A stretch of DNA of 32,016 nt from Chthonomonadia bacterium (GTDB taxonomy: Bacteria; Armatimonadota; Chthonomonadetes; Chthonomonadales; CAJBBX01), in NCBI GenBank assembly GCA_041487935.1, contig JBGPOG010000001.1, forward strand, positions 1 through 32,016. Direction: 5' to 3'. The notes beneath the pieces are model-generated. The model ran no database searches. It saw nothing but the letters and a program-made list of their open reading frames with translations, and was not told where the DNA came from. Position numbers and translations under genes: made by a program. Every line of letters starts with the position of its first letter. Within the stretch, counting starts at the first letter, position 1. Positions 2,326-16,580 of this stretch are shown here, one piece after another.

Positions 2326-2634
2326 TTATGCCGCGATGGGAAGTTTCTCCCCAGGAGCTTCCGGCACTTCCGTACTCAATGATTCGGCGCCCGGCATGGC
2401 GGCTAGCCGTTGTAGGAGAGTGTCTCGGAGCGAATCTCCGCCGGAGTAAACGCGCAAAACTTCGGCGAAGCGAAGGTATTCCTCCCACCCCGACCGCAGG
2501 CATTCGACGGCAAGCGCCTCCGCGCCCCGCAAAAAATAGGCCTCGGAAAGCCAGAGGTTTGTCTCGATGCTATCAAGAATAGATCCGACACTGGTTTCCT
2601 CGGTCTCCTCTATCCGTTCGATTGCTGAGTTCAT
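2326..2634 (-). CDS. Hypothetical helical protein
   Basis: The frame is 2326-2685. I prefer the ATG at 2634 (MNSAIERIEE...) because GGGAGAG lies about 8 nt upstream. It is convergent with the peptidase gene and divergent from the sigma-factor cassette. No recognisable domain. Confidence 0.45.
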   Translation of the reverse strand: MNSAIERIEETEETSVGSILDSIETNLWLSEAYFLRGAEALAVECLRSGWEEYLRFAEVLRVYSGGDSLRDTLLQRLAAMPGAESLSTEVPEAPGEKLPIAA

Positions 2635-2946
2635 TAGATATCTCTCCCTTTTTGGATGTTCGATGCGATACGGAGCCATCTTCATTAAGTACCGGCTTCC
2701 ACGATCCGTTCCTTAACGTCTGGCGGCGCGTTGTATTGCAGGGTATTCGGCGCGAAACGGCGTAATGAATTTCGGAATTCAGCATTGCGTCGACGCATGC
2801 CGCACCACCGCGGACTTACTCGCGCGGATACTGCGCAAACCGGAAAAAGGAACGGATTTATTTTTTCGCACTTTTTCGCCGTCGGATTTTCCGCTTTTGA
2901 GCCGTTGGCGGGAGTAAGGGAGCGGCGGTCGTAGAGGAGAACTTTC

Positions 2947-3693
2947 TTGCGCGGAACCCACGCGCTGTTGAGACCGCTTACAAGAGACTACACGCGAGAA
3001 CCGCAGGTGGTCGCTCAGATTCTCACCATGCAAGGCTTGGAGGATTCTGAGTTTTGGCGGCGCGTTTCGCTTGAGAACCACCTCGATCCGGATTGCCCGT
3101 TTCCGGAAAGTTTGGTTTGCTGGATACGTGAGTTTATGGACCGGGGCGACAGCAGGCGCGCGTGGGACGTTGTCACGGCGCTCGAGCGGCGGGTTGCGCG
3201 GATTGTCGATCGTGGTCTAACGCGAGTTTACGATTTGAGGCAGGATCAGATCGAGGATCTAACGCTGGATCTCATTACGAACCTATATCACGAATGGCTC
3301 AGTCTCGAACCGCCACATGAGTTCTGGGAGATACGGTTTATCTTTTGTCTAAAGCGGAAATTGATTTCGCACGTGAGACGCTTCATTCGCGACCGGGATA
3401 TCGAAGTCGATTTGGCCGGCGGCATTCAATCTGCGGCAGATGCAGAAGATCCGCTTTCGAGGCTCTCAGACCAGCGATCGATCGACACTGAGAATGCCGC
3501 CATTGCCAACGTCGCTCTTGACCAGCTCGGGTATCCGCTTAACCGGGCATTCTTTCTCTACCATTATGGCGAGCTGACGCAGGAGCAGATCGCCAAGGTG
3601 CTTGGAGTTACCGAGCGCACCGTGCGCAATTGGCTTCGAAAGGCGGAAGATCTGCTTGAAATTCGGAGAAGCCAGGAGGGTTACATCCAATGA
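2947..3693 (+). CDS. Sigma-70 family (ECF-like) RNA polymerase sigma factor with an N-terminal extension
   Basis: TTG start at 2947 with GAGGAG 7 nt upstream. An ATG at 3028 is an alternative start. The region-2-like segment is DQIEDLTLDLITNLYHEW...FWEIRFIFCLKRKLISHVRR. The region-4 HTH is LNRAFFLYHYGELTQEQIAKVLGVTERTVRNWLRKAEDLL. Its stop overlaps the next gene's ATG (ATGA at 3690-3693). Confidence 0.8.
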   Translation: MRGTHALLRPLTRDYTREPQVVAQILTMQGLEDSEFWRRVSLENHLDPDCPFPESLVCWIREFMDRGDSRRAWDVVTALERRVARIVDRGLTRVYDLRQDQIEDLTLDLITNLYHEWLSLEPPHEFWEIRFIFCLKRKLISHVRRFIRDRDIEVDLAGGIQSAADAEDPLSRLSDQRSIDTENAAIANVALDQLGYPLNRAFFLYHYGELTQEQIAKVLGVTERTVRNWLRKAEDLLEIRRSQEGYIQ

Positions 3694-4322
3694 GTCGAGA
3701 TATCGATTCGGTGCTGCTTGAATATGACACCGCAGCAGACCAGCCCGGCGGGACAAAACTCGCTGACTGGATCGCGCGGTATCCCGAGTACCAGGACGAT
3801 CTGATCGATTACGCCTATTACAACTTCGTTTTCCAGAAGGGCGAGTCTTATAGGCGAACGGACGCAAAAGCGGCGGGGTATCTAACCCTGGCGGGAGTCG
3901 TACGCGAGCGAATGATGGCAGAAGGCCTATATGCCGCCGGCCGGTCCGCCGATCCGTTGAAAGGAATTCTCATTGCGGCGCGCGCACAAAGCATCGAGCC
4001 TCCTGAATTGGCTCGACGAATCGGGATCGGACTTCCGGTCGTTATCAAGCTCGATCGCCGGCTTATCCGGCCGTCGACGATACCCGTTGAATTGGTTTCC
4101 CGGATCGCTAAAGAGCTCCAGGCTTTCGTTTCGGACGTTTCCGCGTATCTCCGACGACCGCTTACCCTCTCACCACAGGCAAACTACCGGGCTTCGAGCG
4201 CGCCGCAGGTGAGCGCGGCTCAGGATTTTCTGGACGCACTGAATGCGTGTGCAGACGTCTCCGCCGAGCAAAAGGAGTTCTGGAAGAACGAGTCCGGGGT
4301 AGTTCTCGGCGACACGGAGTGA
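3690..4322 (+). CDS. XRE-like helix-turn-helix protein, the partner of the downstream ImmA/IrrE-domain protein
   Basis: 210 aa with an ATG overlapping the sigma gene's stop and AGGAGG 10 nt upstream. The central segment (about nt 3960-4124), PPELARRIGIGLPVVIKLDRRLIRPSTIPVELVSRIAKEL, has the XRE/Cro-type HTH layout. It occupies the position of the HTH partner in the canonical XRE + COG2856 gene pair. Confidence 0.65.
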   Translation: MSRDIDSVLLEYDTAADQPGGTKLADWIARYPEYQDDLIDYAYYNFVFQKGESYRRTDAKAAGYLTLAGVVRERMMAEGLYAAGRSADPLKGILIAARAQSIEPPELARRIGIGLPVVIKLDRRLIRPSTIPVELVSRIAKELQAFVSDVSAYLRRPLTLSPQANYRASSAPQVSAAQDFLDALNACADVSAEQKEFWKNESGVVLGDTE

Positions 4323-4326
4323 TGGT

Positions 4327-7300
4327 ATGACCGGCTGGCCCGCCATTCGATCAGAGGCCCGACGACACCGCCAGGAGAGTCTTGCGAGTGCAGACTCACA
4401 GGGCGGCCTCGTTCCCGCCGAAGAATTGATCGAATGCGCCTTGAACGCAGCGGGATTGTGCCGGCTTGCGCTCCCGTTGGACGATCCTCTGCTGGCAGGC
4501 GCCCATGCGGTTCTGGATCGCCAAGCAGGTTACATCTGGAACCGCGCTGGCCTGTCCCCTGAAACCACTCGCTTTAACATTGCCCACGAGCTTGCTCACT
4601 GGTGGCTTCACTCAGATTCTCGAATGGGATGCAGGGAGGAAGATATCGTCGACTCCCCGGTTGCCGAACCGCTGCCGTTTGGAGAGGCCTATGTCGCGGG
4701 ATACAGCCCCGCACAGCGCAGAGAGGTCGAGGCAAATGTCTTCGCAGCCGAATTTCTGCTCCCCGCTCCGTTGATCGAATCGCTGTTCCTGTCGCCCGAC
4801 CCTCCGAATACGAGCGAGAGTATTGCAGCCGCTATCGGAATCTCGGAAACCGTTGTGTTGGGGCAGATGGCGGAGACGCTGCTCCTGGACGATAGACGAT
4901 GGACGATGGACGATACGTCAATACCTCCGTGCGAAACCGATTCATACATCGTCGATCGTCGATCGTCCATCGTCGACGATCTTGATCCCTCTCAAAAACT
5001 GGCCGCAGAGATGGATCGCGGCCCGGCGCTGATTACGGCAGGGCCCGGAACCGGCAAGACGAGAACGCTGGTCGCTCGCATTCTGGCGCTGCTCGATCGC
5101 GGAGCGGCGCCGGAGCAGATCCTCGCTCTCACATTCTCGAACCGTGCCGCGAACGAGATGAGGTTACGGCTGGCCGAGGTCGTGCCCGCACAGACCCGAC
5201 GGTTGTGGATTGGCACGTTTCACGCGTTCGGCCTGGAGCTTTTGCGGCGATTCGGCACCCGGATTGGTTTGCCGGCCGATCCGAAATTGATAGATCCGGT
5301 GGATGCCGTGTCGCTGCTCGAAAACAACCTCGCGCGGCTCGACCTGGTCGAATATGAATACTTGCATCGCCCCTCGATCCCGTTTCGAGACATATTGTCG
5401 GCAATCTCGCGCGCCAAGGATGAGTTGATTTCGCCGGGACGGTACGCGGAGCTTGCCGAGGCGATGGAGGTCCCAAGCGACGGCAAGGAGCGCGAAGAAG
5501 CCGAGCGCGAACGTTCGAAAGCGCTGGAGGTTGCAAGGGTTTACCGCGTTTATGAAGAGATCCTCAGCGAGAAAGGCTTGCTCGATTTTGGAGATCTCAT
5601 TTATCGGGCTGTCGAGCTATTGAAAACCTATCCCGATGTGGCTGGTCTGGTACATAAAGAGTTCCGCCATCTGCTCGTCGATGAATACCAGGACATCAAT
5701 CGCGGCAGCGCGGTTCTTCTGAAGCTGGTCGTCGGAGAGGGTGAAGGCCTGTGGGCCGTGGGCGACCTTCGGCAGGCTATCTACCGATTCCGAGGCGCAT
5801 CTCCCGCCAATGTCAGCGCATTTGAAGAGGACTATCCTACTGGCAAAGAGCTTTCGCTCGAAATAAACTACCGGTCGCAGCCGAAACTGGTAGATCTCTT
5901 TAGCTGCGCTTCCAGGCAAATCTCCGCCGGTTCGGATTACGACGGGTGGCGCGCATTCCGAAACTCTACCGAATCGTCACTCATCTATGCCGAGGCCGAA
6001 GACGAAGCCGCCCACGCTGACGGCATCGCCCGGTCCATTCGGAATTTCGAGGTAGATGGATTCTCCCTCAACGATCAGGCAGTTCTTTGCAGGACAAACG
6101 CACAGGCAGACTGCCTTGCACGGGAATTGGAAGCCCGCAGCATACCGGTTCTCCATCTGGGTGGGCTGTTCGAACGCCCGGAAGTGAAAGATATGCTTTC
6201 GCTCCTCTCGCTGGCGGTGGAGCCCGGCGGATCGGGCATCGCCCGGGCGGCAGCCATTGACGAGTACCGCATGACAACCGAACAAGTAGCCGGTATTTTG
6301 GCGCGGGCAAGCGAAACCGGGGACGGTGTGGTTGCAGCATCAAAGGGTTCGCCGGAAGAGCAGCTTCCGGCATTCGGCCTGCTTAACAGCCATCTCTATC
6401 CGATTGCCTATCGAGGCGACGCCTGGGCATTCATCGCGCGGTATCTATTCGGACCGGCGCGATATCTTCGCGACAAGATTCGTGCCGGCACCGTCACAAA
6501 TCGCCAGGCGCGCCTTGCGCTCTATCAGCTTCTATTGACGGCAAAGGCCTTTTCGAGCAAAACAAGCATAGCGGTCTCCCAAGATGACGGCAAAAACGAT
6601 CACCCTCAGCGAGCATTTTTGGCGCATATTCGGCATCTTGTCTCAATTGGCGAGGACACGAGGGTGCGAGTACCAGGTGCGGCAGGCGGCCCGCCAGCCG
6701 TACGCATCATGACGATACATGCCTCAAAAGGGCTGGAATTCCCGGTGGTATTCCTACCCAACCTGTCGCAAGGCCAGTTTCCGAGCCGAAAGCGTGGGGG
6801 ACTCGTAAAGCTTCCGCCGGGCTTTGTGCCGGAACAGGAAGACTCCGATCGGCAGGAAGATGAATGCCTGTTTTTCGTCGGGCTATCGAGAGCTCGCGAT
6901 CATCTGGTCCTTACCCGCGCGAGAACGAGAAACGGCAAACAAATACAGCCGTCTCCACTCTTATCGTTGATCGAGGATCGATTCGAAGCCATTGGCGGCC
7001 TGAAAGAACAGTGGGGGACGGAACCGAACGTGAACGTTGAATTGCATGATGGGAACGTCGAATTCGCGGTGAGCGCGAGTATCCTAAGCAGTCCTGGTGC
7101 GGAGCAGGCTCCTTCAGTTTCCAGCGCGCATGCATTGGAAGAGTATATGAGCTGTCCCCGGAAGTACTTTTATTCAAGAGTGTTGAATTTAAGAAATGCC
7201 GGCGAGACGACGCCTTACGCCGCCTTCCACAAGTGCCTTTGGAATGTCATTCGGTGGTGGAGAGGTGAGCGCGAGGCGGGGAGAGTGCCCGGCAGAGTTG

Positions 7301-7821
7301 AGCTGGAAGCCCGGCTAAGTGACGAGTGGCAATCCTTCGGGCCGGATCCCGAGCATCCGCACGAGCAAGTACTGCGGGCCAGGGCAAACCGGATCGTTAC
7401 GAATCTCACTGAGGAAACGGTGGAGATGCCCGACGATCCCGCGCTTCGAAGAGTCGAAGCGAAGCTGCACGGATCGGTTGTGAGGGTAGAGCCGGACGCC
7501 ATCGGTATCAGCATCGAGGGAGGAATTGTCGTAGAAAAGTGGCATGCGGGCAAGCCCCGAGACAGCCATCGAAACTCCCCGAGACTCGCGCTGATTCGCG
7601 AGGGAGTGCGGCAAGAGCATGGCCGCGCGCCGGAGGAGATAAGACTGCGATACCTGACGACCGGCGAAACGCTAACCATCAAGGAGCAGCCGCGTTACGA
7701 GCCTGCTAGAGTCGCAAAATACGAAGAATCGCTCATAGGAATTGAAGCCGGCGAGTTTGGCGCCAGGCCGTCGTCGGACGAATGCCCGCATTGCCCGTTT
7801 TTCTTTATTTGCCCGGCTTAG
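4327..7821 (+). CDS. Fusion protein: ImmA/IrrE (COG2856) HEXXH metallopeptidase + UvrD/PcrA-type SF1 helicase + Cas4/AddB-type Fe-S PD-(D/E)XK nuclease
   Basis: 1164 aa with an ATG start and GGAG 7 nt upstream.
- Protease: HELAH at nt 4585-4599, plus EVEANVFAAEFLLP.
- Helicase: GPGTGKT (5041-5061), LALTFSNRAANEM, IGTFHAFG, DEYQD (5680-5694), GDLRQAIYRFRGA, INYRSQ, IHASKGLEFPVVFL, FFVGLSRARDHLVL.
- Nuclease: CPRKYFY (Cys at 7153-7155), then PDAIGISIEGGIVVEKW, then a terminal CPHCPFFFIC, which is a Cx2Cx5C motif (7783-7812). Confidence 0.9.
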   Translation: MTGWPAIRSEARRHRQESLASADSQGGLVPAEELIECALNAAGLCRLALPLDDPLLAGAHAVLDRQAGYIWNRAGLSPETTRFNIAHELAHWWLHSDSRMGCREEDIVDSPVAEPLPFGEAYVAGYSPAQRREVEANVFAAEFLLPAPLIESLFLSPDPPNTSESIAAAIGISETVVLGQMAETLLLDDRRWTMDDTSIPPCETDSYIVDRRSSIVDDLDPSQKLAAEMDRGPALITAGPGTGKTRTLVARILALLDRGAAPEQILALTFSNRAANEMRLRLAEVVPAQTRRLWIGTFHAFGLELLRRFGTRIGLPADPKLIDPVDAVSLLENNLARLDLVEYEYLHRPSIPFRDILSAISRAKDELISPGRYAELAEAMEVPSDGKEREEAERERSKALEVARVYRVYEEILSEKGLLDFGDLIYRAVELLKTYPDVAGLVHKEFRHLLVDEYQDINRGSAVLLKLVVGEGEGLWAVGDLRQAIYRFRGASPANVSAFEEDYPTGKELSLEINYRSQPKLVDLFSCASRQISAGSDYDGWRAFRNSTESSLIYAEAEDEAAHADGIARSIRNFEVDGFSLNDQAVLCRTNAQADCLARELEARSIPVLHLGGLFERPEVKDMLSLLSLAVEPGGSGIARAAAIDEYRMTTEQVAGILARASETGDGVVAASKGSPEEQLPAFGLLNSHLYPIAYRGDAWAFIARYLFGPARYLRDKIRAGTVTNRQARLALYQLLLTAKAFSSKTSIAVSQDDGKNDHPQRAFLAHIRHLVSIGEDTRVRVPGAAGGPPAVRIMTIHASKGLEFPVVFLPNLSQGQFPSRKRGGLVKLPPGFVPEQEDSDRQEDECLFFVGLSRARDHLVLTRARTRNGKQIQPSPLLSLIEDRFEAIGGLKEQWGTEPNVNVELHDGNVEFAVSASILSSPGAEQAPSVSSAHALEEYMSCPRKYFYSRVLNLRNAGETTPYAAFHKCLWNVIRWWRGEREAGRVPGRVELEARLSDEWQSFGPDPEHPHEQVLRARANRIVTNLTEETVEMPDDPALRRVEAKLHGSVVRVEPDAIGISIEGGIVVEKWHAGKPRDSHRNSPRLALIREGVRQEHGRAPEEIRLRYLTTGETLTIKEQPRYEPARVAKYEESLIGIEAGEFGARPSSDECPHCPFFFICPA
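4888..4981. repeat. Inverted array of heptamer repeats inside the CDS: (GACGATN)x4, 32-nt spacer, (ATCGTCN)x4
   Basis: Left units are at 4888, 4895, 4902 and 4909 (gacgata, gacgatg, gacgatg, gacgata). Right units are at 4948, 4955, 4962 and 4969 (atcgtcg, atcgtcg, atcgtcc, atcgtcg), followed by acgatc. All eight hexamer cores are perfect, and the two arms are reverse complements of each other. Confidence 0.8.
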
Positions 7822-7837
7822 GAGATCATTAGCATAT

Positions 7838-8599
7838 ATGTTCAGGCTTGATGGGAAGGTCGCGCTCGTAACCGGCGCGGGATCGGGAATTGGCGAAGAG
7901 ATTGCGCGGAAGTTTGTCGCCCAGGGCGCAACTGTCATCGTGGCGGATATCGACGAGGCGGCGGGACACCGCGTCAACGATTCATTGGGGCCGTTGGCGC
8001 CCTTCCAAAGGCTCGACGTGACCGGCGCGGACGACTTTCAGGCCGCAGTTACTCTTGCGGCTGACCGGTTCGGCAAGCTCGACATTCTCGTGAACAACGC
8101 CGGAATCGGGCTCGTCGGAAATGTCGAAGAGACTTCGGATGAGGATTTCGGCCGCCTTCTGAATGTCAACGTGACGGGGGTGTTCCACGGCTGCAAATGC
8201 GCGGTCCCAATCATGGTGGCGCAAGGCGGTGGAAACATCATCAACATCGGTTCCGTCGCCGGCCTCGTTGCGATCGAACGGCGCTTTGCCTACAGCGCGA
8301 CCAAAGGCGCGGTAATTGCGCTGACCCGCCAGCTTGCCATGGACTATGTTTCCAAAGGGATTCGCTGCAACTGCATATGCCCGGGGACGGTCTACACACC
8401 GTTCGTCGATTCCTATCTGGAGAAGTTTCACGCGGGCGAAGTCGAAGAAACCAAAGCGAAGCTTCATGCGCGCCAGCCGATGGGGCGAATGGGCCGGCCC
8501 GACGAAATCGCGACGATGGCAGTATATCTGGCGTCTGACGAGTCAGAGTTCGTAACCGGAGCGGTTCTGCCTATCGACGGTGGCCTAACTGCGCGATAA
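7838..8599 (+). CDS. Short-chain dehydrogenase/reductase (SDR) family oxidoreductase
   Basis: I prefer the ATG at 7838 (MFRLDGKVALVTGAGSGIGEEIA). The track's start at 7742 would overlap the helicase gene. Motifs TGxxxGxG, NNAG and the catalytic YSATK are present. Confidence 0.9.
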   Translation: MFRLDGKVALVTGAGSGIGEEIARKFVAQGATVIVADIDEAAGHRVNDSLGPLAPFQRLDVTGADDFQAAVTLAADRFGKLDILVNNAGIGLVGNVEETSDEDFGRLLNVNVTGVFHGCKCAVPIMVAQGGGNIINIGSVAGLVAIERRFAYSATKGAVIALTRQLAMDYVSKGIRCNCICPGTVYTPFVDSYLEKFHAGEVEETKAKLHARQPMGRMGRPDEIATMAVYLASDESEFVTGAVLPIDGGLTAR

Positions 8600-8624: not shown

Positions 8625-9866
8625 ATGAGGATGCGTAAGAGGTCCGCCACAAACGGCCTATCGGACAGTCCATATCTCTCGGAAGCCCTGAAGGTCGCAT
8701 ACTATCACTGCGTTCTAGAGATGCCCCTCAAGTCCATCGCCGAAATGCTGGGCAAGAGCCCGGCGACGATCACCCGGCGGCTTGACGAAGTCCGCCAGGC
8801 CGGGTGGCTCCGCGATCATCCCGAGTTTAGCCCTCCGCCTGAAATCTGGCGCGAGCTGCAAGGCCGCATGACCTGCTCCGACATTGAGAACGGCCTGCTC
8901 GATCACTTTGGCAGGGAAGTGTTAAAGCGAGTTACGGTCCTGCCGTCTCTCCCCAAGCAGGGCATCCGGCATCCCGTCGAAGCCAGCCCGGAGAACGTCG
9001 AACGCGTGGGGTTGTATGCGGCACAAAGGTTATGCGAGACTCTCGCCGATGGTGCGCACGTGGTGGGGGTCAACTGGGGCTGGTCGGTTCGCCACTGTGT
9101 TACCACGCTGAGGCCTAGCCGCCCAAACCCAGACCTGAGGTTCATTCCGCTGATCGGCAACTTGAGCCTGGATGAAAACGATCCCCATTTCGAGGAGGCG
9201 ATCGACTGTTCCAGCAATCGTCTTGCCCAAATCGCTGCGTCTGCATTCGGCGCGCCCCGCGCACCGCGATTGAGCACTCCGGCGTATATTCCCAGGAGGT
9301 TTCACAGCGATGCGCGCGGTCTTCGGGCAATCCGCGATTTCATCGAGAGCGATATCTCATTCCGACGGATATTTGGCGGGGCAGATGAAACAGGCATTCC
9401 TCAGACAGGATTGATCGAACAGGTCGATACAATCGTGACCGGCATGAGCTCGATCGACGTGGAAACTCTACCTATCTACCGGCCTAACCTTATCACGCCT
9501 AACGACGTGGAGGTGCTCGAAAGGGCCGGCGTAGTGGGCGACCTGGCATTGCACCTCGTCGTTGAAGATGCACCGGTCAAACGATCGGAGGAAGAAAGCC
9601 TGGTTCATTCGATAAACGGACTGATCGTAGGTGCGTCACCTGCGGATTTCATTCGAATTGCGGAGCGCGCGCGCTCGAGCGGCGCGAGCGGATTGGGGGT
9701 CGTTGTCCTATCCGTGGGCGCGTGGAAGGCGCGAATTCTGTCCACCGCCATCCGGCTTCGCGCGGTAAACGAGCTCATCACCGATCTCGAAACCGCGCTC
9801 GCGGTTGGCAAGCACGCCGGAATCAGTTTTCCCACCGGATCCTATCTCCCAGGAGGAAGAAGATGA
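8625..9866 (+). CDS. SorC/CggR-family sugar-binding transcriptional regulator
   Basis: The N-terminal HTH is LKVAYYHCVLEMPLKSIAEMLGKSPATITRRLDEVRQAG. Blocks typical of the SorC sugar-binding domain follow: VGVNWGWSV, IPLIGNLS, GVVGDLALHLV, and VVVLSVGAWKARILSTAIRLRAVNELITDLETA. Its stop overlaps the pgi start. Confidence 0.8.
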   Translation: MRMRKRSATNGLSDSPYLSEALKVAYYHCVLEMPLKSIAEMLGKSPATITRRLDEVRQAGWLRDHPEFSPPPEIWRELQGRMTCSDIENGLLDHFGREVLKRVTVLPSLPKQGIRHPVEASPENVERVGLYAAQRLCETLADGAHVVGVNWGWSVRHCVTTLRPSRPNPDLRFIPLIGNLSLDENDPHFEEAIDCSSNRLAQIAASAFGAPRAPRLSTPAYIPRRFHSDARGLRAIRDFIESDISFRRIFGGADETGIPQTGLIEQVDTIVTGMSSIDVETLPIYRPNLITPNDVEVLERAGVVGDLALHLVVEDAPVKRSEEESLVHSINGLIVGASPADFIRIAERARSSGASGLGVVVLSVGAWKARILSTAIRLRAVNELITDLETALAVGKHAGISFPTGSYLPGGRR

Positions 9867-11317
9867 GCGCGGACCAAAACTCGCCGCTCGAATTCGACGC
9901 GACCGCAGCCACCGCTCTTCTCGAAAGCGGCGTCAACCGCGCGCATCTGGCTGAACTCGACCAACGGGTAGACGCGATCCAACAGGCATTCGCAGCCGAA
10001 CAGCAGCAAGGCTACGCCACCCTTGAGCGCAACTTGCGGGCGTGGACGCAGAGCCACCTCCGCAAGGACGAAATCGAGGCCACCATTGCGCTGGCAGGGC
10101 GGGTTCGAAATAAGTTTGCGGCGTTCATTCTCGTCGGAATTGGTGGGTCGGATCTTGGCGGGCGAACGCTGCACGATTCTCTGGATCATCCATTCCATAA
10201 CCAGCTATCCCCCGAGCGGCGGGGCTGCCGTCCGGACGGAACCGGCGGAGCGCCGGAGATCTATTTCACCGGCGACACATTCGACCCAAAGCGGTTGCTC
10301 GGCCTTTTGGATCTTCTGGAAACGCGCGGACTGCTCGACAAGACTTGTGTCGATGTCGTCAGCAAATCCGGCAAGACCGGTGAAACCATCGCCGCCGCCA
10401 TGGTGATCCGAGAGCGGATGGAGCAGGCAGGGATTAAGGATTGGACCCAGCGTTTCGTCGCCACCACCGGCCAGAACGATCGGAGCGTATTATTCAAGAT
10501 GAACCAGTCTGCGCCTTTTTTCGGGATGCTGCCGGTTCCGGAAGGTGTGGGCGGCCGGTTCAGCTTCGCTTCGCCGGTAGGACTGCTGCCGTTCGCGGTG
10601 ACGGCGGTTGATGAATTGCCCGCCGAACGAGTAAAGAGCGCCCTGGCGGGATACGCGGAAGCGCACCGGCGATTCCTGCTGCCGGCTAACGATCCGTCGA
10701 ACATTGCTTGCCAACTCGCCCGCTGGTGGCAATTGGGAGAGCAGTTCTGCCACAAGACGGATATGCTCTTCAGCAACTACGCCGATGACGCCCGGATCGG
10801 AGATTGGTTCACACAGCTCTACGAAGAGAGCGTGCAGGAGCGTGGCGGCGGGATAAACGTGATCGGCACGCGAGGCCCCACCGGCAATCACTCCATTCTG
10901 AACGGTATCCTGCGAGGGCCGCACGATAAGCTGGTGATGCTTGTCCACTGGGCGGACCTCGGAAGAGGAACTCAGATTCCGACGGGCACCGGAATCGGAG
11001 GCGACCTGAAGTACTTCGAAGGACTTTCACTGAATTCGGTGCAAAGCGCCTCTTGCCGGGCGACTGCTGCGGACTTCCTCGCCAACGGCGTGCCGACGGC
11101 GACGGTTCAGGTGAGCGGGCGGGACACTTACCACACAGTCTTACTTATGCGAACGCTAATGGATGCCGTTGCCATTAAGGGTAGATTACAATACCTTCAC
11201 GTCAGCGCCAAAGGAGAGCCGGATCCCGCTACAGACCTCACCTATCAGCAGGACGGAGTGGAAGGGTACAAAATTGGCACGCGGAAGAACGCTGAGGAGA
11301 TGCAGAAGCAGTTGTAG
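9863..11317 (+). CDS. pgi: Glucose-6-phosphate isomerase
   Basis: ATG at 9863, in an ATGA overlap with the SorC stop, with AGGAGG upstream. PGI motifs are ILVGIGGSDLGGR and VVSKSGKTGETIAA. The track's start at 9722 is an upstream in-frame extension inside the SorC gene. Confidence 0.9.
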   Translation: MSADQNSPLEFDATAATALLESGVNRAHLAELDQRVDAIQQAFAAEQQQGYATLERNLRAWTQSHLRKDEIEATIALAGRVRNKFAAFILVGIGGSDLGGRTLHDSLDHPFHNQLSPERRGCRPDGTGGAPEIYFTGDTFDPKRLLGLLDLLETRGLLDKTCVDVVSKSGKTGETIAAAMVIRERMEQAGIKDWTQRFVATTGQNDRSVLFKMNQSAPFFGMLPVPEGVGGRFSFASPVGLLPFAVTAVDELPAERVKSALAGYAEAHRRFLLPANDPSNIACQLARWWQLGEQFCHKTDMLFSNYADDARIGDWFTQLYEESVQERGGGINVIGTRGPTGNHSILNGILRGPHDKLVMLVHWADLGRGTQIPTGTGIGGDLKYFEGLSLNSVQSASCRATAADFLANGVPTATVQVSGRDTYHTVLLMRTLMDAVAIKGRLQYLHVSAKGEPDPATDLTYQQDGVEGYKIGTRKNAEEMQKQL

Positions 11318-11550
11318 GCAGGCCGTCGCTGAATTCGAACGGAATTGTTTGGTTGGGACCCTGGAGTCCCTCACGACTTGCCGTCATCGATGCTGCCCCT
11401 GAGGAACAGTAGATCGATGTCGCCGGCCCAAGTAACGGATGGGAGCGCTGGCCTGCCTCGGACCTGATGCCGATTTGGGATGGGTTCGCGCCTATCTTGG
11501 AGCAAACATAGCACAATCGATGATGTGAAATTCTCGACTGGAGAGTAACT

Positions 11551-12570
11551 TTGATTTTCATCTGCCCGTTGGTAGCGATGTGTACAATACCGGCTCCTGA
11601 GCACACCTCTGTTAGCGTCACCGTCAGCGGTCATCCCCGCCGCATCGTCACCGACGCAGGCGCCGGCGGTTATCAGGCTTTCCCCGATGTCTGCCGCCTC
11701 AAGAATGGCGAGCTGTTTTGCGTTTTCTACGCGGGATACACGCACGTCTCGCTTCCAAACGCACAACTGCCGAAAGGAGGACGGATTTGCGCGATTCGCT
11801 CGTCCGACGAAGGGAAAACGTGGAGCAGCCCACAAACCATCATCGACACGTCCTTCGACGACCGCGATCCTTCCGTATGCTGCCTGCCGGACGGCGCCCT
11901 TCTCTGTAACTTCTTCAAGTACTCTGCCAATACCGCGGCGGATACGTGCATTTCTCGATCGACCGACGACGGAATGACCTGGAGCGAGCCGGATATGATC
12001 GCGCCGAGCTTTGCGACCTCTACACAGATACGGCGGCTTCGATCGGGCCGTCTGGTGCTGCCGGTCTATACCGTCGACGGGGCCAAACGCGCGTTTGCGG
12101 CGGTATGTCTGTCCGACGATCGCGGCCGGACCTGGAGCGGCCCACACCCCATCGGATTGAACGCCGGCAAGACGCTGGACGAAACCGACGTTTACGAGAG
12201 GAAGGACGGCACGCTGCTGGCCGTCATGCGCGAGGTGATGTGCGGCTCAGAGTCCAGGGACCGCGGCAAGACGTGGGGGCCGGTTTTTGACCTGGGGTTT
12301 CCCGGACACTGCCCTTGTTTGCTGATGACGCGGTCGGGCGTTCTTTTGATGGCTCATCGGCTGCCGGGGACGTCACTGCACTACAGCCTGGATGAGGGCC
12401 GAACGTGGCAAGGGCCGGTTAAGATCGACAACGTTATCGGCGCCTATCCGAGCCTGCTGGAGCTGCGTAATGGCCGAGTCCTTTGCGTCTACTACGAGGA
12501 AGGGAAGGGCTCCGCTATTCGGGCGGTCGAGCTATCCGTGACAAAAAATCGCCCGGCCTCGAAGGAGTAA
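11551..12570 (+). CDS. BNR/Asp-box repeat beta-propeller protein (sialidase-like fold)
   Basis: Five Asp-box motifs are present: SSDEGKTW, STDDGMTW, SDDRGRTW, SRDRGKTW, SLDEGRTW. TTG start with GGAGAG 6 nt upstream; an ATG at about 11578 is an alternative. I saw no clear FRIP motif or signal peptide, so sialidase activity is not asserted. Confidence 0.85.
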   Translation: MIFICPLVAMCTIPAPEHTSVSVTVSGHPRRIVTDAGAGGYQAFPDVCRLKNGELFCVFYAGYTHVSLPNAQLPKGGRICAIRSSDEGKTWSSPQTIIDTSFDDRDPSVCCLPDGALLCNFFKYSANTAADTCISRSTDDGMTWSEPDMIAPSFATSTQIRRLRSGRLVLPVYTVDGAKRAFAAVCLSDDRGRTWSGPHPIGLNAGKTLDETDVYERKDGTLLAVMREVMCGSESRDRGKTWGPVFDLGFPGHCPCLLMTRSGVLLMAHRLPGTSLHYSLDEGRTWQGPVKIDNVIGAYPSLLELRNGRVLCVYYEEGKGSAIRAVELSVTKNRPASKE

Positions 12571-12736
12571 CCGGGCTCAAGTGCACGCAATGGGTAGACG
12601 TGTACATCCGGTCAGACGGCGCGTGTTGATGGGATGTTCCCAAAATCCGCAATATTCTTAAGATTCACCAAAGATACGTCTATATGGAGACCGTTAAATA
12701 GCGCGACACTCAAGCGGTCTCGCCTCTTCACGCCGG

Positions 12737-13089
12737 TTATTTAGAGTCCACAATCTCACCGGGCGGTAGCAGTGCTGACACTGCAGCCTCAATCCCTGGG
12801 ACCGTCCTCGTCACGGTGGACCATACCTTGCCGTAGTGGATAGCATCTAAACGTGGATGTAGAAGTTTCGAAGCTTGATGAGGAACTCCCAGTCGACCTG
12901 TGTATGTGCGCTTCGGAAACCCGCAGAAACTCGGGATGCCGTCTCTCCCATAATCTCTAACTCACGCACGACCGCAGCCTTCGTCTAATCATCCAATAGA
13001 AACTCCGCGCGGCTAATACCCTCAACGTATCGGCTGCGCCTCCGAGCGGCGTTGCGGATATCCTCGAGCGAGATCTCATCCTTTCGCAT
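12737..13089 (-). pseudogene. Disrupted HEPN (DUF86-type) toxin gene of a HEPN/MNT module
   Basis: The ATG at 13089 overlaps the MNT stop by 14 nt. The frame reads MRKDEISLEDIRNAARRRSRYVEGISRAEFLLDD, then an in-frame TAG (12985-12987), then TKAAVVRELEIMGETASRVSAGFRSAHTQVDWEFLIKLRNFYIHV. That segment contains the Rx4H HEPN motif RNFYIH. A second TAG follows at 12847-12849. The C-terminal part, DAIHYGKVWSTVTRTVPGIEAAVSALL...*, continues in another frame, consistent with a 1-nt deletion in a TAY codon. The reconstructed length of about 116 aa is typical for DUF86. Confidence 0.8.
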
Positions 13090-13393
13090 AAATAGGCTCC
13101 ATGGTCGAGAAAATCTCCTTCTTAAGGAACCTGTTTTCGCTCGCCTCGATGCCTTCCCGATCCAGAACGTCAACCTCGCGGCCTAGGATCCTTGCCAGCT
13201 CGTCCTGCATCCGAAAGTGATCGGCCAAATCCCAATTCGCATCGGCCTCATGCACCACTACAAAATCCACGTCGCTATCAGGACCGAAATCGTCGCGTGT
13301 CACCGAACCGAAGATACTTAAACTCTCAATTTTCCACTTCAGGCAGAATTCCAGAATGGCAGACGAATCGAATTTGATCCCATGCTTCGTCAT
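13076..13393 (-). CDS. MNT-type minimal nucleotidyltransferase (antitoxin-like partner of HEPN)
   Basis: 105 aa with an ATG start. The Pol-beta-superfamily motif is IFGSVTRDDFGPDSDVDFVV (GS-x-DxD). It overlaps the start of the downstream HEPN remnant, as in canonical MNT-HEPN operons. Confidence 0.85.
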   Translation of the reverse strand: MTKHGIKFDSSAILEFCLKWKIESLSIFGSVTRDDFGPDSDVDFVVVHEADANWDLADHFRMQDELARILGREVDVLDREGIEASENRFLKKEIFSTMEPIYAKG

Positions 13394-13573
13394 TGTATTG
13401 CCTTTCTGGCCATCATTGTATCACAGCCACGACAACTTGGTTCTCCTTAGAAGCAACCCTAGTGCGAATATGCGGGTTAGTGTTTCAAAAATCAGCGGCT
13501 TATGGTCGTCCGTCCATTGTGCAGAGTGACGGTCCGACAATTTGGCTGTCGTTTTCAATAATGGCGTGTGCGA

Positions 13574-13822
13574 TTAGCTCGCTACGAACAGCTCTCGAAG
13601 TAGTGCCGGATTGGAATTGGTTCTTGCGGCCAATGCACGCAGGTTTGACCTAGAGATTGCCGTCGGAAAGCGGGCAGTCACCGACTTAAACTCGAGTCTA
13701 TCTCCGATACTCTCCGCCCATCGACTCAGAGTATATCCAATTGTCTGTCCGTCAACGTTCAGCAATTTGATTGACCGCTTGTGACGTCTCAGACTTGGCG
13801 GGCAGACGGGATTGTAGCTCAT
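13574..13822 (-). CDS. Hypothetical small protein
   Basis: 82 aa with an ATG start and AGGAG 6-7 nt upstream. It lies upstream of the MNT gene within the AT-richer islet. No recognisable domain. Confidence 0.4.
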   Translation of the reverse strand: MSYNPVCPPSLRRHKRSIKLLNVDGQTIGYTLSRWAESIGDRLEFKSVTARFPTAISRSNLRALAARTNSNPALLRELFVAS

Positions 13823-13954
13823 TAGGTGCTCCTACAGGGCCAATTCCTTACTTAACACAGCAGAACCCAAATCGAATCGGCCAGCGTGCAAAATGGTCCG
13901 AGCAGAATAGTGCCCGGACCCTAGCCATTGCGATCGCCAAAAGAAGCAATTACT

Positions 13955-13975
13955 CCCCTCCCGATTCGGGAGGGG
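13955..13975 (-). terminator. Putative intrinsic terminator downstream of ftsZ
   Basis: GC-rich hairpin cccctcccg (13955-13963) / cgggagggg (13967-13975) with a 3-nt loop, about 45 nt after the ftsZ stop. On the minus strand a T-rich tract (ttgcttctttt) follows after 5 nt, not immediately. Confidence 0.45.
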
Positions 13976-14021
13976 TTATGCAGCTATCTTCTCGCACGAA
14001 CCATTACGGGGTGGGATTCGC

Positions 14022-15203
14022 CTACCGTCTCCGCAGAAACGCCGGAATATCCAAATCGTTTTCGTTGACCGTCTTGACGGTCGGTTCTGCCGGTTCCGTT
14101 ATCTGGTTCAGTGCCGGGGGAGACTGCGGCGGCTGTGGAACCTGCTGGCGGATTACGGGCGGGGTTTCCAGTTGCTTCGCCGTGGGATGCGGCTGAGGCA
14201 CGGTTTGAGCCGCATGAGCATGTCCCTGCTGGCCGCGGTGCCCGGAGAATCCGGTTGCCAGCACGGTCACTCGAACCTGCCCCTCCATGCCGGAGTCGGA
14301 CACCCAGCCGAAGATGATGTTGGCTTCCTTGCGGTCGCACAGCTCGTTGATGAGCAGCGCCGCTTCGTTTGCCTCGGCCAGGGTCAGATCCGGACCCGAT
14401 GTCACGTTGATGAGCACTCTCAAGGCGCCCTCGATGGAGGTTTCCAAGAGCGGGCTGGAGATGGCGGCTTGCGCGGCTTCGACCGCCCGATGATCGCCGC
14501 TGGCGATGCCGATTCCCATCAGCGCCGAGCCCGCGTTCGACATGATGGTCTTGACGTCCGCGAAGTCCACGTTGATCTGGCCGGGGATTGTGATGATATC
14601 GGAAATTCCCTGAACGCCCTGCCTCAGCACGTCATCCGCCACTCGGAATGCCTCCACAAGCGTCATGCGCTTGTCCCCGACGGACAGCAGCTTGTCGTTC
14701 GGGACGATGATCACCGTATCGACTTTGGCTTTCAGATTGTCCACACCCTCTTCCGCGAGCCGCATCCTCCGAGGGCCTTCGAAGTTAAACGGCTTGGTGA
14801 CGACTGCCACCGTCAGCGCGCCGATCTCGCGGGCGATTTCCGCGATTACCGGGGCTGCTCCGGTGCCGGTGCCGCCACCCATGCCGGCCGTGATGAAAAC
14901 CATGTCCGCGCCATCCATAGCCTTCTTGATTTCGCTCTTGCTCTCTTCAGCGGCGCTTCGGCCGATCTCAGGGTTGCCGCCGGCGCCCAATCCCCGGGTC
15001 AAGTTTTCGCCGAGCTGCATTTTCAAGGGAGCCAGCGCGATGTTGAGCACCTGGCGATCGGTATTCATTGCCAGGAAGTCGACTCCCGTTAAGCCGGATT
15101 CTATCATCCGGTTAACAGCGTTCGTCCCGCCGCCACCGACGCCTATGACCTTGATATGCGCGCCTACGGTCTCTTCGAACCGCCCCCCGCTGAAACCTGA
15201 CAT
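14022..15203 (-). CDS. ftsZ: Cell division GTPase FtsZ
   Basis: Motifs [13 protein letters not shown] and the tubulin signature [16 protein letters not shown] are present. A P/Q-rich linker leads to the conserved C-terminal peptide [12 protein letters not shown] prefer the ATG at 15203 over the track's TTG at 15209. Confidence 0.97.
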
Positions 15204-15338
15204 AAGCAATGGCCCCCTTATCGAATCTGTCGCGTCCCGGCCTTATCGGCCGATAAGAATTCTCGATGATGTGTTGGTCCTGCCGATCGGTGCAATTGTT
15301 CGACCTGTAATCGGCTGTATTGTCCGGGAACTCGTCAT

Positions 15339-16580
15339 TCAATCCGTGCGAAGCTTGTTGAATATGCCTGACAAGAAACGGGAAACCCCTCCGAGGGGGC
15401 CCTGGGCCGCGAGGTTGCGGCGCTGTTCCATCTGCCGGTGCATGCCGTACTGAACCAGACCGACTGAAGTGGCGAACGTAGGACTCTCCACAGAATCCGC
15501 CAGGCCCCAGATTCCCGCCGTCTTGCCCAGCCGAACGGGCATTTTCAGAACGTCTCCCGAACACCCAAGCGTACCACGCAAAAGCGACCCGCCGCCGGTC
15601 AGAACCATGCCGGCAGGGACAGTATTCTGACACCCGGACTTCACAATCTCTTTCTGCACGAACTGGAAAAGCTCCTGCATCCTGGCTTCCACGATTTCGC
15701 AAAGAACGCGGCGCCTCAGAGTTCTGCGCTCCGAGCTCCCGATCGGTGTGAGCGGGAATCCTTCGTTCTCCCCGACGCCTTCAGACGTGGCGGATCCGTG
15801 CTCGATTTTGACCTTTTCTGCCTCTTCAAGGTTAACGCGCAGCAGCGTCGCTATGTCGCTCGTCACATGGTTGCCGCCAACCGGGATTACGGCGGAATAG
15901 AAAATCTCCCCGCTTTGAAAGATTGCCAGGTCGCTCGTTCCGCCGCCAATATCTACCATGCAGACGCCGAGATTCTTTTCGGCCGGCAGCACGACTGCTT
16001 CGGCTGTTGCGATCGGCTCAAGAACCATATTTGCGTGTGCGAGCCCGGCCCGGAGCACGCATTTTTCCACGTTTTGGAGAAACGTGTGCGCGCCCGTTAC
16101 GATGTGGGTCTCGACCTCCAGCCTGGAGCCGGACATGCCAACCGGCTGGCGGATGCCGTTGTGCCCGTCGACGGAATAGGAACGTGGAATTGCGTGGAGA
16201 ATCTCACGATCCGGCGGAATAACGATGACGCACGAGGCTTGAAGGACGCGGTTGACGTCGTCTTCGTTGATCTCGCGGCTGGGATGGGTAATCGCGATAC
16301 GCCCGCTGGAGTTCAAGGAGGCAATGTGCTCGCCGGTCACCCCGACATAGACGTTAGAAACCGTGTTACCGGACTGCTGCTCGGCCTTGCCGACGGCCTC
16401 TTTGATGGACTGAACGGTCGAATCTAGATCGACGACGATGCCCCGTTTGAGCCCGCTCGACGGGTTAACGCCGACGCCAACGACGATCAACTCACCGCTA
16501 TCGCCAATTTCAGCGATAACGCAACAAGTCTTGGTCGTTCCAATATCCAGGCCGGCAATGAGATCGTGTTTCACCGACAA
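15339..16580 (-). CDS. ftsA: Cell division protein FtsA (actin-like ATPase)
   Basis: Motifs LDIGTTKTCCVIAE, VDIGGGTSDLAIF and MVLTGGGSLL are present. It sits immediately upstream of ftsZ. TTG start at 16580; a GTG at 16574 is also possible. Confidence 0.95.
   Translation of the reverse strand: MSVKHDLIAGLDIGTTKTCCVIAEIGDSGELIVVGVGVNPSSGLKRGIVVDLDSTVQSIKEAVGKAEQQSGNTVSNVYVGVTGEHIASLNSSGRIAITHPSREINEDDVNRVLQASCVIVIPPDREILHAIPRSYSVDGHNGIRQPVGMSGSRLEVETHIVTGAHTFLQNVEKCVLRAGLAHANMVLEPIATAEAVVLPAEKNLGVCMVDIGGGTSDLAIFQSGEIFYSAVIPVGGNHVTSDIATLLRVNLEEAEKVKIEHGSATSEGVGENEGFPLTPIGSSERRTLRRRVLCEIVEARMQELFQFVQKEIVKSGCQNTVPAGMVLTGGGSLLRGTLGCSGDVLKMPVRLGKTAGIWGLADSVESPTFATSVGLVQYGMHRQMEQRRNLAAQGPLGGVSRFLSGIFNKLRTD

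Follow-up and report, generated by a model that had tools for sequence, protein, structure and literature searches.

We analysed a stretch of 32,016 nucleotides (nt) from Chthonomonadia bacterium, a member of the Armatimonadota (contig JBGPOG010000001.1, positions 1 to 32,016; hereafter the window), in which three consecutive plus-strand genes encode a sigma factor, a helix-turn-helix (HTH) protein and a protease-helicase fusion. Gene 1 (2947-3693; 248 aa, TTG start) specifies a sigma-70 family factor of the extracytoplasmic function (ECF) type, gene 2 (3690-4322; 210 aa) a partner with an XRE-type HTH core, and gene 3 (4327-7821; 1164 aa) a protein in which a peptidase, a helicase and a four-cysteine domain are joined. 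An initial annotation of this DNA had described three coupled genes at 2947-7821, each with its own Shine-Dalgarno site, and the sequence bears this out: genes 1 and 2 share an ATGA overlap at 3690-3693, genes 2 and 3 meet at TGA-TGGT-ATG with a gap of 4 nt (4323-4326), and Shine-Dalgarno-like motifs precede each start (GAGGAG at 2934-2939, AGGAGG at 3674-3679 and GGAG at 4316-4319 for genes 1, 2 and 3, respectively). The three open reading frames (ORFs) are far beyond chance, being long and having more than 100 full-length homologues.

Domain composition of the three proteins

Gene 1 matched the ECF sigma-70 model TIGR02937 over residues 81-235 (1e-12; 48 bits, cut-off 42.9) and Sigma70_r4_2 at 1.5e-9, with Sigma70_r2 itself not detected in the Pfam scan. 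TIGR02937 was matched by 17 of 24 gene 1 homologues and Sigma70_r4_2 by 16 of 24, and a profile of the family matches solved ECF sigma factors. Judged by these sequence signatures, gene 1 is an ECF-type sigma factor, as the initial annotation had proposed, with a conserved N-terminal extension of ~80 aa (in place of the ~90 aa given there) that carries the motif RPLTR..Y.REP.V and precedes the sigma-2 and sigma-4 domains. In the sigma-4 recognition helix (consensus EKTVRN) T225 is near-invariant, which would fit a constant -35 box. Word-indexed homologue searches with genes 1 and 2 returned almost nothing (2-3 matches), because both proteins diverge fast. The idea that the two are paralogous HTH proteins was dropped after a negative profile-profile comparison.

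The gene 2 protein of the window had no match in Pfam, NCBIfam or PADLOC, and within its family HTH_31 was matched (8e-8) by three of 25 members, and HTH_31 or HTH_26 by a few. An exhaustive HMMER search identified 1022 representatives (50% clustering) at E <= 1e-3 and 494 at E <= 1e-10, nearly all of 195-235 aa. The AlphaFold2 (AF2) model, built from 68 homologues, is all-helical and confident (predicted local distance difference test, pLDDT, 90.5), and consists of an N-terminal segment of four helices (residues 1-82), an XRE-type HTH (residues ~93-154, nt 3966-4151), an extended loop A-x-Y166-R167-A-x3-P172 (nt 4179-4205) and a C-terminal helical hairpin (residues 180-201). Foldseek aligned residues ~93-154 with DdrO, SinR, ClgR, the 434 and P22 repressors and the N-terminal domain of CapH, at ~2 A over ~60 residues, with DdrO, the substrate of IrrE, among the best structural matches; the N-terminal four helices and the C-terminal hairpin had no match among known structures. 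The XRE-like HTH named in the initial annotation is therefore upheld through family members and through the AF2 and Foldseek results, the window protein itself having no library match.

Conservation in the gene 2 family peaks in the extended loop that follows the HTH, A164-x-(Y/F)166-(R/K)167-(A/S)168-x3-P172, whose positions are conserved in 88%, 90%, 97% and 99% of 174 sequences. In CapH/CapP, the peptidase CapP is activated by single-stranded DNA (ssDNA) and cuts CapH at F82/R83, just past the HTH (Lau et al. 2022, bioRxiv 10.1101/2022.04.27.489752), and from this likeness we predict Y166/R167 as the scissile bond of the gene 2 product.

A variant gene 2 protein of 385 aa was found in an uncultured bacterium (MFD01476.bin.2.180; locus L008, 5847-7004), where it adjoins BREX genes (BrxL, DNA methylase). 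This protein has an additional zf-HC2 (ZAS) anti-sigma zinc finger at its N-terminus, above the Pfam cut-off, and the fusion functionally ties the gene 2 family to sigma control. No other member of the family has a zf-HC2 match in Pfam. We also considered whether the gene 2 N-terminus is a degenerate, zinc-less anti-sigma domain, and rejected this after an hhalign comparison of the L008 ZAS segment with the family profile (probability 0.3); the finger was retained as a domain-fusion hint only, and the claim of homology was dropped.

Gene 3 encodes an M78 peptidase resembling CapP and IrrE (aa 63-177, nt 4513-4857; Peptidase_M78, PF06114, 8e-11), a superfamily 1 helicase of the UvrD/PcrA type (aa 219-865, nt 4981-6921; UvrD-helicase, PF00580, over residues 219-504 at 5e-64, and UvrD_C) and a four-cysteine PD-(D/E)XK-fold domain resembling Cas4 and AddB (aa 933-1163, nt 7123-7815; PDDEXK_1, 1e-11). 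This three-domain architecture recurs in more than 100 cluster representatives at 39-56% identity. Invariant across the homologues are the HEXXH residues H87, E88 and H91 with the downstream E133, E135 and E142; Walker A GPGTGKT (G239-T245, including K244), DEYQD at 452-456, and helicase motifs V and VI; and the iron-sulphur (Fe-S) cysteines C943, C1153, C1156 and C1162. The N-terminal domain, which had been proposed as a COG2856 metalloprotease, has CapP (7t5t, 6.7e-8) and IrrE (3dte, 8e-5) as its best solved relatives by profile comparison, in agreement with that proposal.

The fusion of an ImmA/IrrE-type protease, a UvrD helicase and an Fe-S nuclease that the initial annotation had read from gene 3 therefore stands for all three domains and their invariant motifs, and is weakened for the nuclease activity. 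Motif II Asp1057 is kept in 113 of 120 homologues, but a canonical motif III (D/E)xK is found anywhere in the right segment in just 11 of the 120; the motif III position is E in 40 of 120, followed by R/K at +1 and not by K at +2, and in the window reads V-V-E-K-W, lacking the +2 lysine. Because motif III is degenerate in ~90% of the family, the nuclease label is doubtful, and from its sequence we describe the C-terminal part of gene 3 as a putative Cas4/AddB-like Fe-S DNA-binding domain. The combination of invariant helicase motifs and Fe-S cysteines with a degenerate motif III suits a sensor, not an effector. A similar order, with a UvrD-type superfamily 1 motor followed by a PD-(D/E)XK-fold domain and a C-x(n)-C-x2-C-x5-C Fe-S signature, occurs in AddB, AdnAB and Cas4, from which gene 3 differs in being a single polypeptide that has no partner subunit, in its added N-terminal protease and in its degenerate motif III. 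The ORF list shows no second large subunit in the window operon, and the NCBIfam models for PcrA, UvrD, AddA and RecB gave scores of 118-306 bits against cut-offs of 650-1144.

Conservation of the trio and its genomic neighbours

We identified 26 loci with a full-length fusion in a scan of one genome per species in GTDB, distributed across Acidobacteria, Alpha-, Beta- and Gammaproteobacteria, Chloroflexi, Armatimonadota and Verrucomicrobia. In all 26, the two same-strand ORFs directly upstream of the fusion are a sigma-like gene and a middle gene. The gene 1 counterparts are of ~215-310 aa (357 aa in L008), most with the N-terminal motif RPL-K-R--DG--Y-R-PEVE, and the gene 2 counterparts, whose N-terminal segment is conserved, of ~185-235 aa (385 aa in L008); the stop and start codons of the trio usually overlap, often by 4 nt. 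The trio was additionally identified on all six plasmids examined, in the closest metagenomic relatives (L081-L083) and in L091-L094, the last of which is an Escherichia coli chromosome (strain CP61_Sichuan). Linkage of the fusion to sigma and HTH genes, which had been suggested as a test of the initial annotation, is conserved across many phyla, at least seven for the trio, with both small genes kept in 39 of ~40 loci examined.

The fusion is found on 46 plasmids, no full-length copy was found in phage genomes, and some copies of the cassette lie in defence islands beside restriction-modification, BREX, SIR2 and HNH genes. Above all, a same-strand Bil or Bub operon follows the cassette in 21 of the 26 genome loci, on all six plasmids, in L091 and L092 and in E. 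coli, giving 30 of ~40 loci, at a distance of ~100-150 nt in most of them. Downstream BilABCD operons were recognised by PADLOC (BilA 1e-50, BilB 2e-60, BilC 9e-66, BilD 1.5e-155), and the Bub operons are of type I or type II, in which Multi_ubiq is followed by JAB-ThiF or DUF6791-ThiF and then by DUF6527. The cassette itself had been taken for a defence module in the initial annotation; its position directly upstream of separate effector operons in most genomes is instead regulator-like. BilABCD has been investigated as a unit of four genes, which makes the cassette an accessory of it.

Strain CP61_Sichuan (L094; NZ_CP053730.1, 1335701-1342605) is the sole carrier of the cassette among 5,426 complete E. 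coli genomes. Its cassette has a type II Bub operon downstream, and the whole block lies near fimH with IS1 and IS4 elements at its flanks. Both small genes of this copy carry the annotation hypothetical protein. In an Armatimonadaceae metagenome-assembled genome (L004), by comparison, the cassette is followed at 10338-13988 by a genuine bacterial PARP, in which WGR, PARP_reg and catalytic PARP domains are present, by a helix-hairpin-helix protein and by two unknown ones. RecN lies nearby on the opposite strand. This suggests that the switch could be wired to DNA-damage functions other than Bil and Bub.

A promoter motif within and around the cassette

The Bil and Bub operons are preceded by a motif that reads TT(T/A)CCGG, a spacer, and cGATT(A/G) or cGATCA, usually with an A-tract upstream. 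We located it at 33 sites in 18 loci other than the window, with a spacer of 17 nt in 26 of the 33. In its strict form it occurs in 17 of 27 intergenic regions between the fusion and Bil or Bub, where ~0.1 would be expected from a background of ~1 per 44 kb in the same loci.

A second copy of the motif lies upstream of gene 1 in six loci (L003, L086, L087, L009, L026 and L091), and in 15 others within the 3' portion of gene 1, ~215 nt ahead of gene 2, the two placements being mutually exclusive. The internal copy overlaps a conserved Y-R-x-x-L-x-x-A-I-D peptide, and synonymous positions are fixed as well: the isoleucine is ATT in all 15 loci, even where ATT makes up 7-20% of isoleucine codons, and the arginine codon is CGG in 12 loci, the other three, with CGA, being precisely those whose Bub promoter likewise reads TTACCGA. 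Paired copies co-vary by locus, with GATCA/GATCA in L003 and L086, TTACCGA/TTACCGA in L020, L084 and L088, ATTGA/ATTGA in L092, and GAGTA/GAGTA in the clade of the window. This placement and the co-variation within loci look like those of an autoregulated ECF-type sigma regulon. In an uncultured Alphaproteobacteria metagenome-assembled genome (L022, ~6075), an in-frame TAG inside the internal promoter-like motif splits gene 1 into two ORFs, possibly as a pseudogene or an assembly error.

The window, together with L081, L083 and L093, has the variant TTTCCG(C/G/A)-N17/18-(G)AGTA, with two divergent copies in the interval separating gene 1 from a small divergent gene. One promoter-like motif faces the cassette (2888-2918, plus strand; -35 TTTCCGC at 2888-2894, 17-nt spacer, -10 GAGTAAG at 2912-2918), lies ~29 nt before the TTG start of gene 1 and agrees in its -35 with the TT(T/A)CCGG box of the other loci, and another faces a small divergent gene (2846-2815, minus strand; -35 TTTCCGG at 2846-2840, 18-nt spacer, -10 GAGTAAG at 2821-2815). 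The pattern TTTCCGN{18,19}GAGTR occurs exactly twice in the 32-kb window, at 2888-2916 (plus) and 2846-2817 (minus), against 0.06 expected, and none of 100 shuffles reached two. Minus-strand equivalents of the motif at the small gene are present in L081 (6450), L083 (6463) and L093. A proteobacterial position weight matrix misses the promoters of the window clade on the plus strand because this clade has a different -10, as comparison of the relatives made visible. No sigma-70-type promoter was predicted in the region before gene 1, and within and after the cassette neither such a promoter nor a terminator stands out. Inverted repeats at 24 promoters were not enriched over shuffles (mean arm 5.6 versus 5.2 nt; at least 7 nt in 11% of both).

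Separately, the leader between the sigma-type promoter and bilA is conserved across genera in L003, L086 and L087 (for instance L087, 10315-10382), reading ..aagggacg..ggcaatgg.gcctc.c..ttc..tccccggag.., and is a candidate RNA element or binding site.

The small divergent gene of the window (2326-2685, minus strand) encodes a small acidic helical protein of 119 aa as listed, although its true start may be the second Met at ~2634. Proteins 45-49% identical to it are encoded at the same divergent position in L081/L082 and L083; it had no match in Pfam and was not found outside these closest relatives. The clade-specific motif lies before it on the same strand, and no other local gene is a candidate target of the gene 1 sigma factor. 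The Ubl, E2, JAB and E1 genes of Bil, and the Multi_ubiq, E1-fusion and DUF6527 genes of Bub, are absent from the whole window by tblastn.

On its other side, the cassette is followed by a short-chain dehydrogenase (SDR) gene (7838-8599, plus strand) that starts 17 nt past the stop of the fusion, with no terminator-like site between, and that may be co-transcribed with it. Next come ORFs for a SorC-type regulator and a PGI-like protein (8625-9866 and 9722-11317, plus strand), which as listed overlap by 145 nt, the latter gene probably beginning at a later codon. The downstream region of L081 is syntenic, with the same SDR, a SorC-type regulator and transaldolase/PGI-like genes, and with three inserted genes (HEAT_2, Mut7-C and an ABC transporter). 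The flanks of the window hold an M20 peptidase, the SDR, the PGI-like protein, FtsZ (14022-15209, minus strand) and FtsA (15339-16580, minus strand), consistent with the housekeeping context noted in the initial annotation. The window cassette is a chromosomal "solo" copy and was probably inherited vertically, because its flanks are core genes, lacking tRNA and integrase genes, and its downstream genes are syntenic with L081.

A probable protease-gated sigma switch and its alternatives

Taken together, we consider it probable that the cassette is a DNA-sensing, protease-gated sigma switch acting on itself and on neighbouring operons, and not an effector; the conserved and locus-co-varying promoter motif lends this reading strong, if indirect, support. 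The gene 1 sigma factor would recognise a dedicated promoter with a -35 of TT(T/A)CCGG, a spacer of 17-18 nt and a clade-specific -10, namely cGATT(A/G) in most lineages and GAGTA/nAGTA in the lineage of the window. Gene 2 would be an HTH-containing negative regulator of this sigma factor and also the substrate of the protease. Gene 3 would be the sensor, its UvrD-type motor and Fe-S domain engaging DNA ends or ssDNA that arise from damage or from invading DNA, and this engagement would activate the fused CapP/IrrE-like metalloprotease. The protease would then cut the gene 2 product in the conserved loop, at the predicted Y166/R167, and so free or activate the sigma factor, with transcription of its own operon and of the neighbouring operon with the same promoter. 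The output would be BilABCD or Bub in most bacteria, and in the window the cassette and the small divergent gene only.

The gene content, the sigma identity of gene 1, the conservation of the trio, the linkage to Bil and Bub, the promoter motif with its placement and co-variation, and the condition of the catalytic motifs were observed directly by computation. Sequestration of the sigma factor by gene 2, cleavage of gene 2 by gene 3, and DNA ends or ssDNA as the trigger are steps that we infer from three sources: homology to CapP/CapH and IrrE/DdrO, the order of the genes, and the fused protein of L008. The direction in which regulation runs within the switch is likewise a deduction.

Activated by ssDNA or DNA damage, the proteases CapP and IrrE cut XRE-type repressors immediately behind the HTH. 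IrrE/DdrO of Deinococcus and ImmA/ImmR of ICEBs1 and phi105 pair, as here, a COG2856/M78 protease with an XRE-type regulator, in their case with DNA-damage-triggered cleavage, but they lack a sigma factor, a helicase and an Fe-S domain, and their output is de-repression at operators, not sigma release. CapH/CapP is the closer parallel, being an HTH repressor and M78 peptidase tied to CBASS, Bil and Bub (Lau et al. 2022, bioRxiv 10.1101/2022.04.27.489752). The present cassette shares with it the M78 HEXXH peptidase (with CapP 7t5t as the best solved match), an XRE-type HTH partner, a Y/F-R/K dipeptide in the loop equivalent to the aromatic-Arg cut site of CapH, and a location next to immune operons that include Bil and Bub. 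It departs from CapH/CapP in several respects: the linker and GAF domains of CapP are replaced by the UvrD helicase and the four-cysteine Cas4-like domain (gene 3 has no GAF match in Pfam, and its helicase begins at residue 219, straight after the peptidase domain); a third gene supplies a dedicated ECF sigma factor; CapH/CapP are divergent pairs, whereas this cassette runs in the same direction as the operon it would control; the promoters concerned are sigma-specific and showed no palindromic operator; and the gene 2 partner is twice as large as CapH, with extra N- and C-terminal helices.

The arrangement also recalls ECF sigma/anti-sigma pairs such as sigmaE-RseA and SigW-RsiW, in which a two-domain sigma factor is followed by a translationally coupled small partner. 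Common to both are a protease in the module, an autoregulatory promoter whose -35 is distinctive and whose -10 contains CG, and, in one cassette variant, a ZAS finger. Unlike RseA and RsiW, the gene 2 protein is cytoplasmic, bears an HTH and has no recognisable anti-sigma domain; the protease is an M78 enzyme fused to a DNA helicase in place of a membrane site-1/site-2 protease; the module presumably responds to DNA and not to envelope stress; and the sigma factor has the N-terminal extension of ~80 aa.

Several observations weigh against the proposed switch. No homology to known anti-sigma domains could be detected for the N-terminal segment of gene 2. The nearest relatives of its HTH are DNA-binding repressors, and the protein might instead act on DNA. 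The AF2 model of gene 1 is poor (pLDDT 52), because the homologue set stayed shallow, and although its top Foldseek matches are all ECF sigma factors we used it as weak support only. The motif was first spotted by eye, and the loci in which it was spotted also served to formalise it; its strict form is missing from 10 of the 27 Bil/Bub intergenic regions, with near matches in L002, L012, L021 and L085. In one 2.96-Mb genome (L090, 7001-10465) a full-length fusion has neither a sigma nor a middle gene upstream, its neighbours being a response regulator, a MerR regulator and an AP_endonuc_2 protein, which indicates that the fusion can exist without its two partners. For the window in particular, no effector operon adjoins the cassette, as is also the case in L081-L083 and L093.

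The strongest alternative is that gene 2 is a CapH/DdrO-like repressor seated on the sigma-dependent promoters, so that cleavage clears the DNA and the sigma factor only gives promoter specificity. This would be in keeping with the XRE-type HTH as the sole recognisable domain of gene 2, with its best matches in the DNA-binding repressors DdrO, SinR and CapH, with a protease whose closest relatives, CapP and IrrE, act on such repressors, and with the missing anti-sigma homology. The promoters argue the other way, their inverted repeats being no commoner than in shuffles and no operator-like sequence being evident in both the upstream and the downstream promoter of a locus, as do the order of a sigma factor followed by a co-translated partner, which is that of sigma/anti-sigma pairs, and the ZAS anti-sigma domain fused to the gene 2 protein in L008. 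None of these points is decisive, and we regard the repressor explanation as rather unlikely.

A second alternative concerns this genome in particular, in which the cassette would be a chromosomal IrrE/DdrO-like regulator of the DNA-damage response in bacteria of the Armatimonadota type, or a repair factor, governing a dispersed repair regulon with no role in immunity; the fusion may additionally process DNA ends in the manner of AdnAB and AddAB. The core genes around the window cassette, the absence there of tRNA, integrase and defence genes, and the synteny with L081 agree with this, as do the PARP, helix-hairpin-helix and RecN neighbours in L004 and the AP-endonuclease-family neighbour in L090. 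It is improbable given that the module is elsewhere overwhelmingly linked to mobile defence operons, and there are two promoter copies only in 32 kb, a scale at which a dispersed regulon cannot be seen. This explanation is compatible with the sigma switch, from which it differs in trigger and output only, and is not a true alternative mechanism.

Finally, it is very improbable that the cassette itself is an anti-phage or abortive effector degrading DNA by the logic of Gabija, Nhi, Hachiman or AddAB, with protease and sigma factor as auxiliaries: the retained PD-(D/E)XK fold and Fe-S cluster, the plasmid and defence-island copies and the strong but generic PADLOC matches of gene 3 to the GajB and RTasHel helicase models would suit it, but the active site is degenerate (motif III canonical in 11 of 120 homologues, its acidic residue being E in 40, with no +2 lysine in the window), no GajA-like or other effector partner of the kind specific to these systems is present, no PADLOC system model fits genes 1 and 2, and a separate same-strand effector operon with a sigma-type promoter follows in 30 of ~40 loci. 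The degenerate active site and the separate effectors also disfavour the abortive nuclease that the initial annotation had kept as an option. Its overall interpretation is supported in part, for the conserved trio, the M78 domain and the protease-gated switch, and not for the effector nuclease or the defence module.

The initial annotation could match this composition to no characterised system, and PADLOC 2.0 likewise returned no system-specific match, with nothing for genes 1 and 2. No account of the sigma/HTH/M78-helicase module was found in PADLOC 2.0 or in the searchable literature, including that on Bil, Bub, CapH/CapP and CapK/CapS and a comparative-genomics paper of 2006. Its kind is known, that of a protease-gated HTH switch as in CapH/CapP and IrrE/DdrO, and what is new is the input, a helicase and Fe-S domain, and the output, a dedicated sigma factor. 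More tentatively, the cassette may represent an unrecognised form of sigma control, in which a cytoplasmic, DNA-translocating helicase with an Fe-S end sensor directly gates the CapP-like protease fused to it, which destroys an HTH-type anti-sigma factor and so turns aberrant DNA into a dedicated transcription programme, the cassette serving as the native on-switch of a large share of Bil and Bub operons and, in copies of the Armatimonadota type, as a stand-alone chromosomal sigma regulon responding to DNA damage or invader DNA.

Bil and Bub are ubiquitin-like conjugation systems of bacteria, and both are being actively studied. Bil is an experimentally established anti-phage system, studied as the four-gene BilABCD unit, and Bub is a related system of unknown role that has been reported with CapW, CapH+CapP or CapK+CapS regulators (PMC11601596, PMC13373217). 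The same niche, at the promoters of Bub and other immune operons, is held by the DNA-damage-responsive regulators CapW/BrxR and CapK/CapS (PMC13373217); these proteins, a WYL repressor and a kinase with a STAS-winged-HTH repressor, respectively, are unrelated to those of the cassette, and they de-repress and use no alternative sigma factor. CapH+CapP were reported for 168 of 544 Bub operons (PMC11601596). CapP was scored in studies of these systems by PF06114 annotation, and some of these associations may be the present cassette, counted through its PF06114 domain.

Activation of Bil and Bub in native hosts is only partly known, through CapW, CapH/CapP and CapK/CapS. If our reading is true, a sigma-based regulator that senses through a DNA motor would provide a fourth and mechanistically different route to their control, and would explain the lack of phenotype for Bub operons tested outside their native context ("data not shown", PMC11601596). 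The window contributes a chromosomal "solo" copy in which the divergent small gene is the only output candidate, and the promoter motif provides an immediately testable predictor of the regulon. The reading would assign a role to two families whose present annotations are hypothetical protein or assorted sigma-factor and DNA-binding names, of which the gene 2 family alone comprises at least 1,000 clusters at 50% identity, and it would add to the known means of ECF sigma activation a cytoplasmic, DNA-triggered route that depends on an M78 protease.

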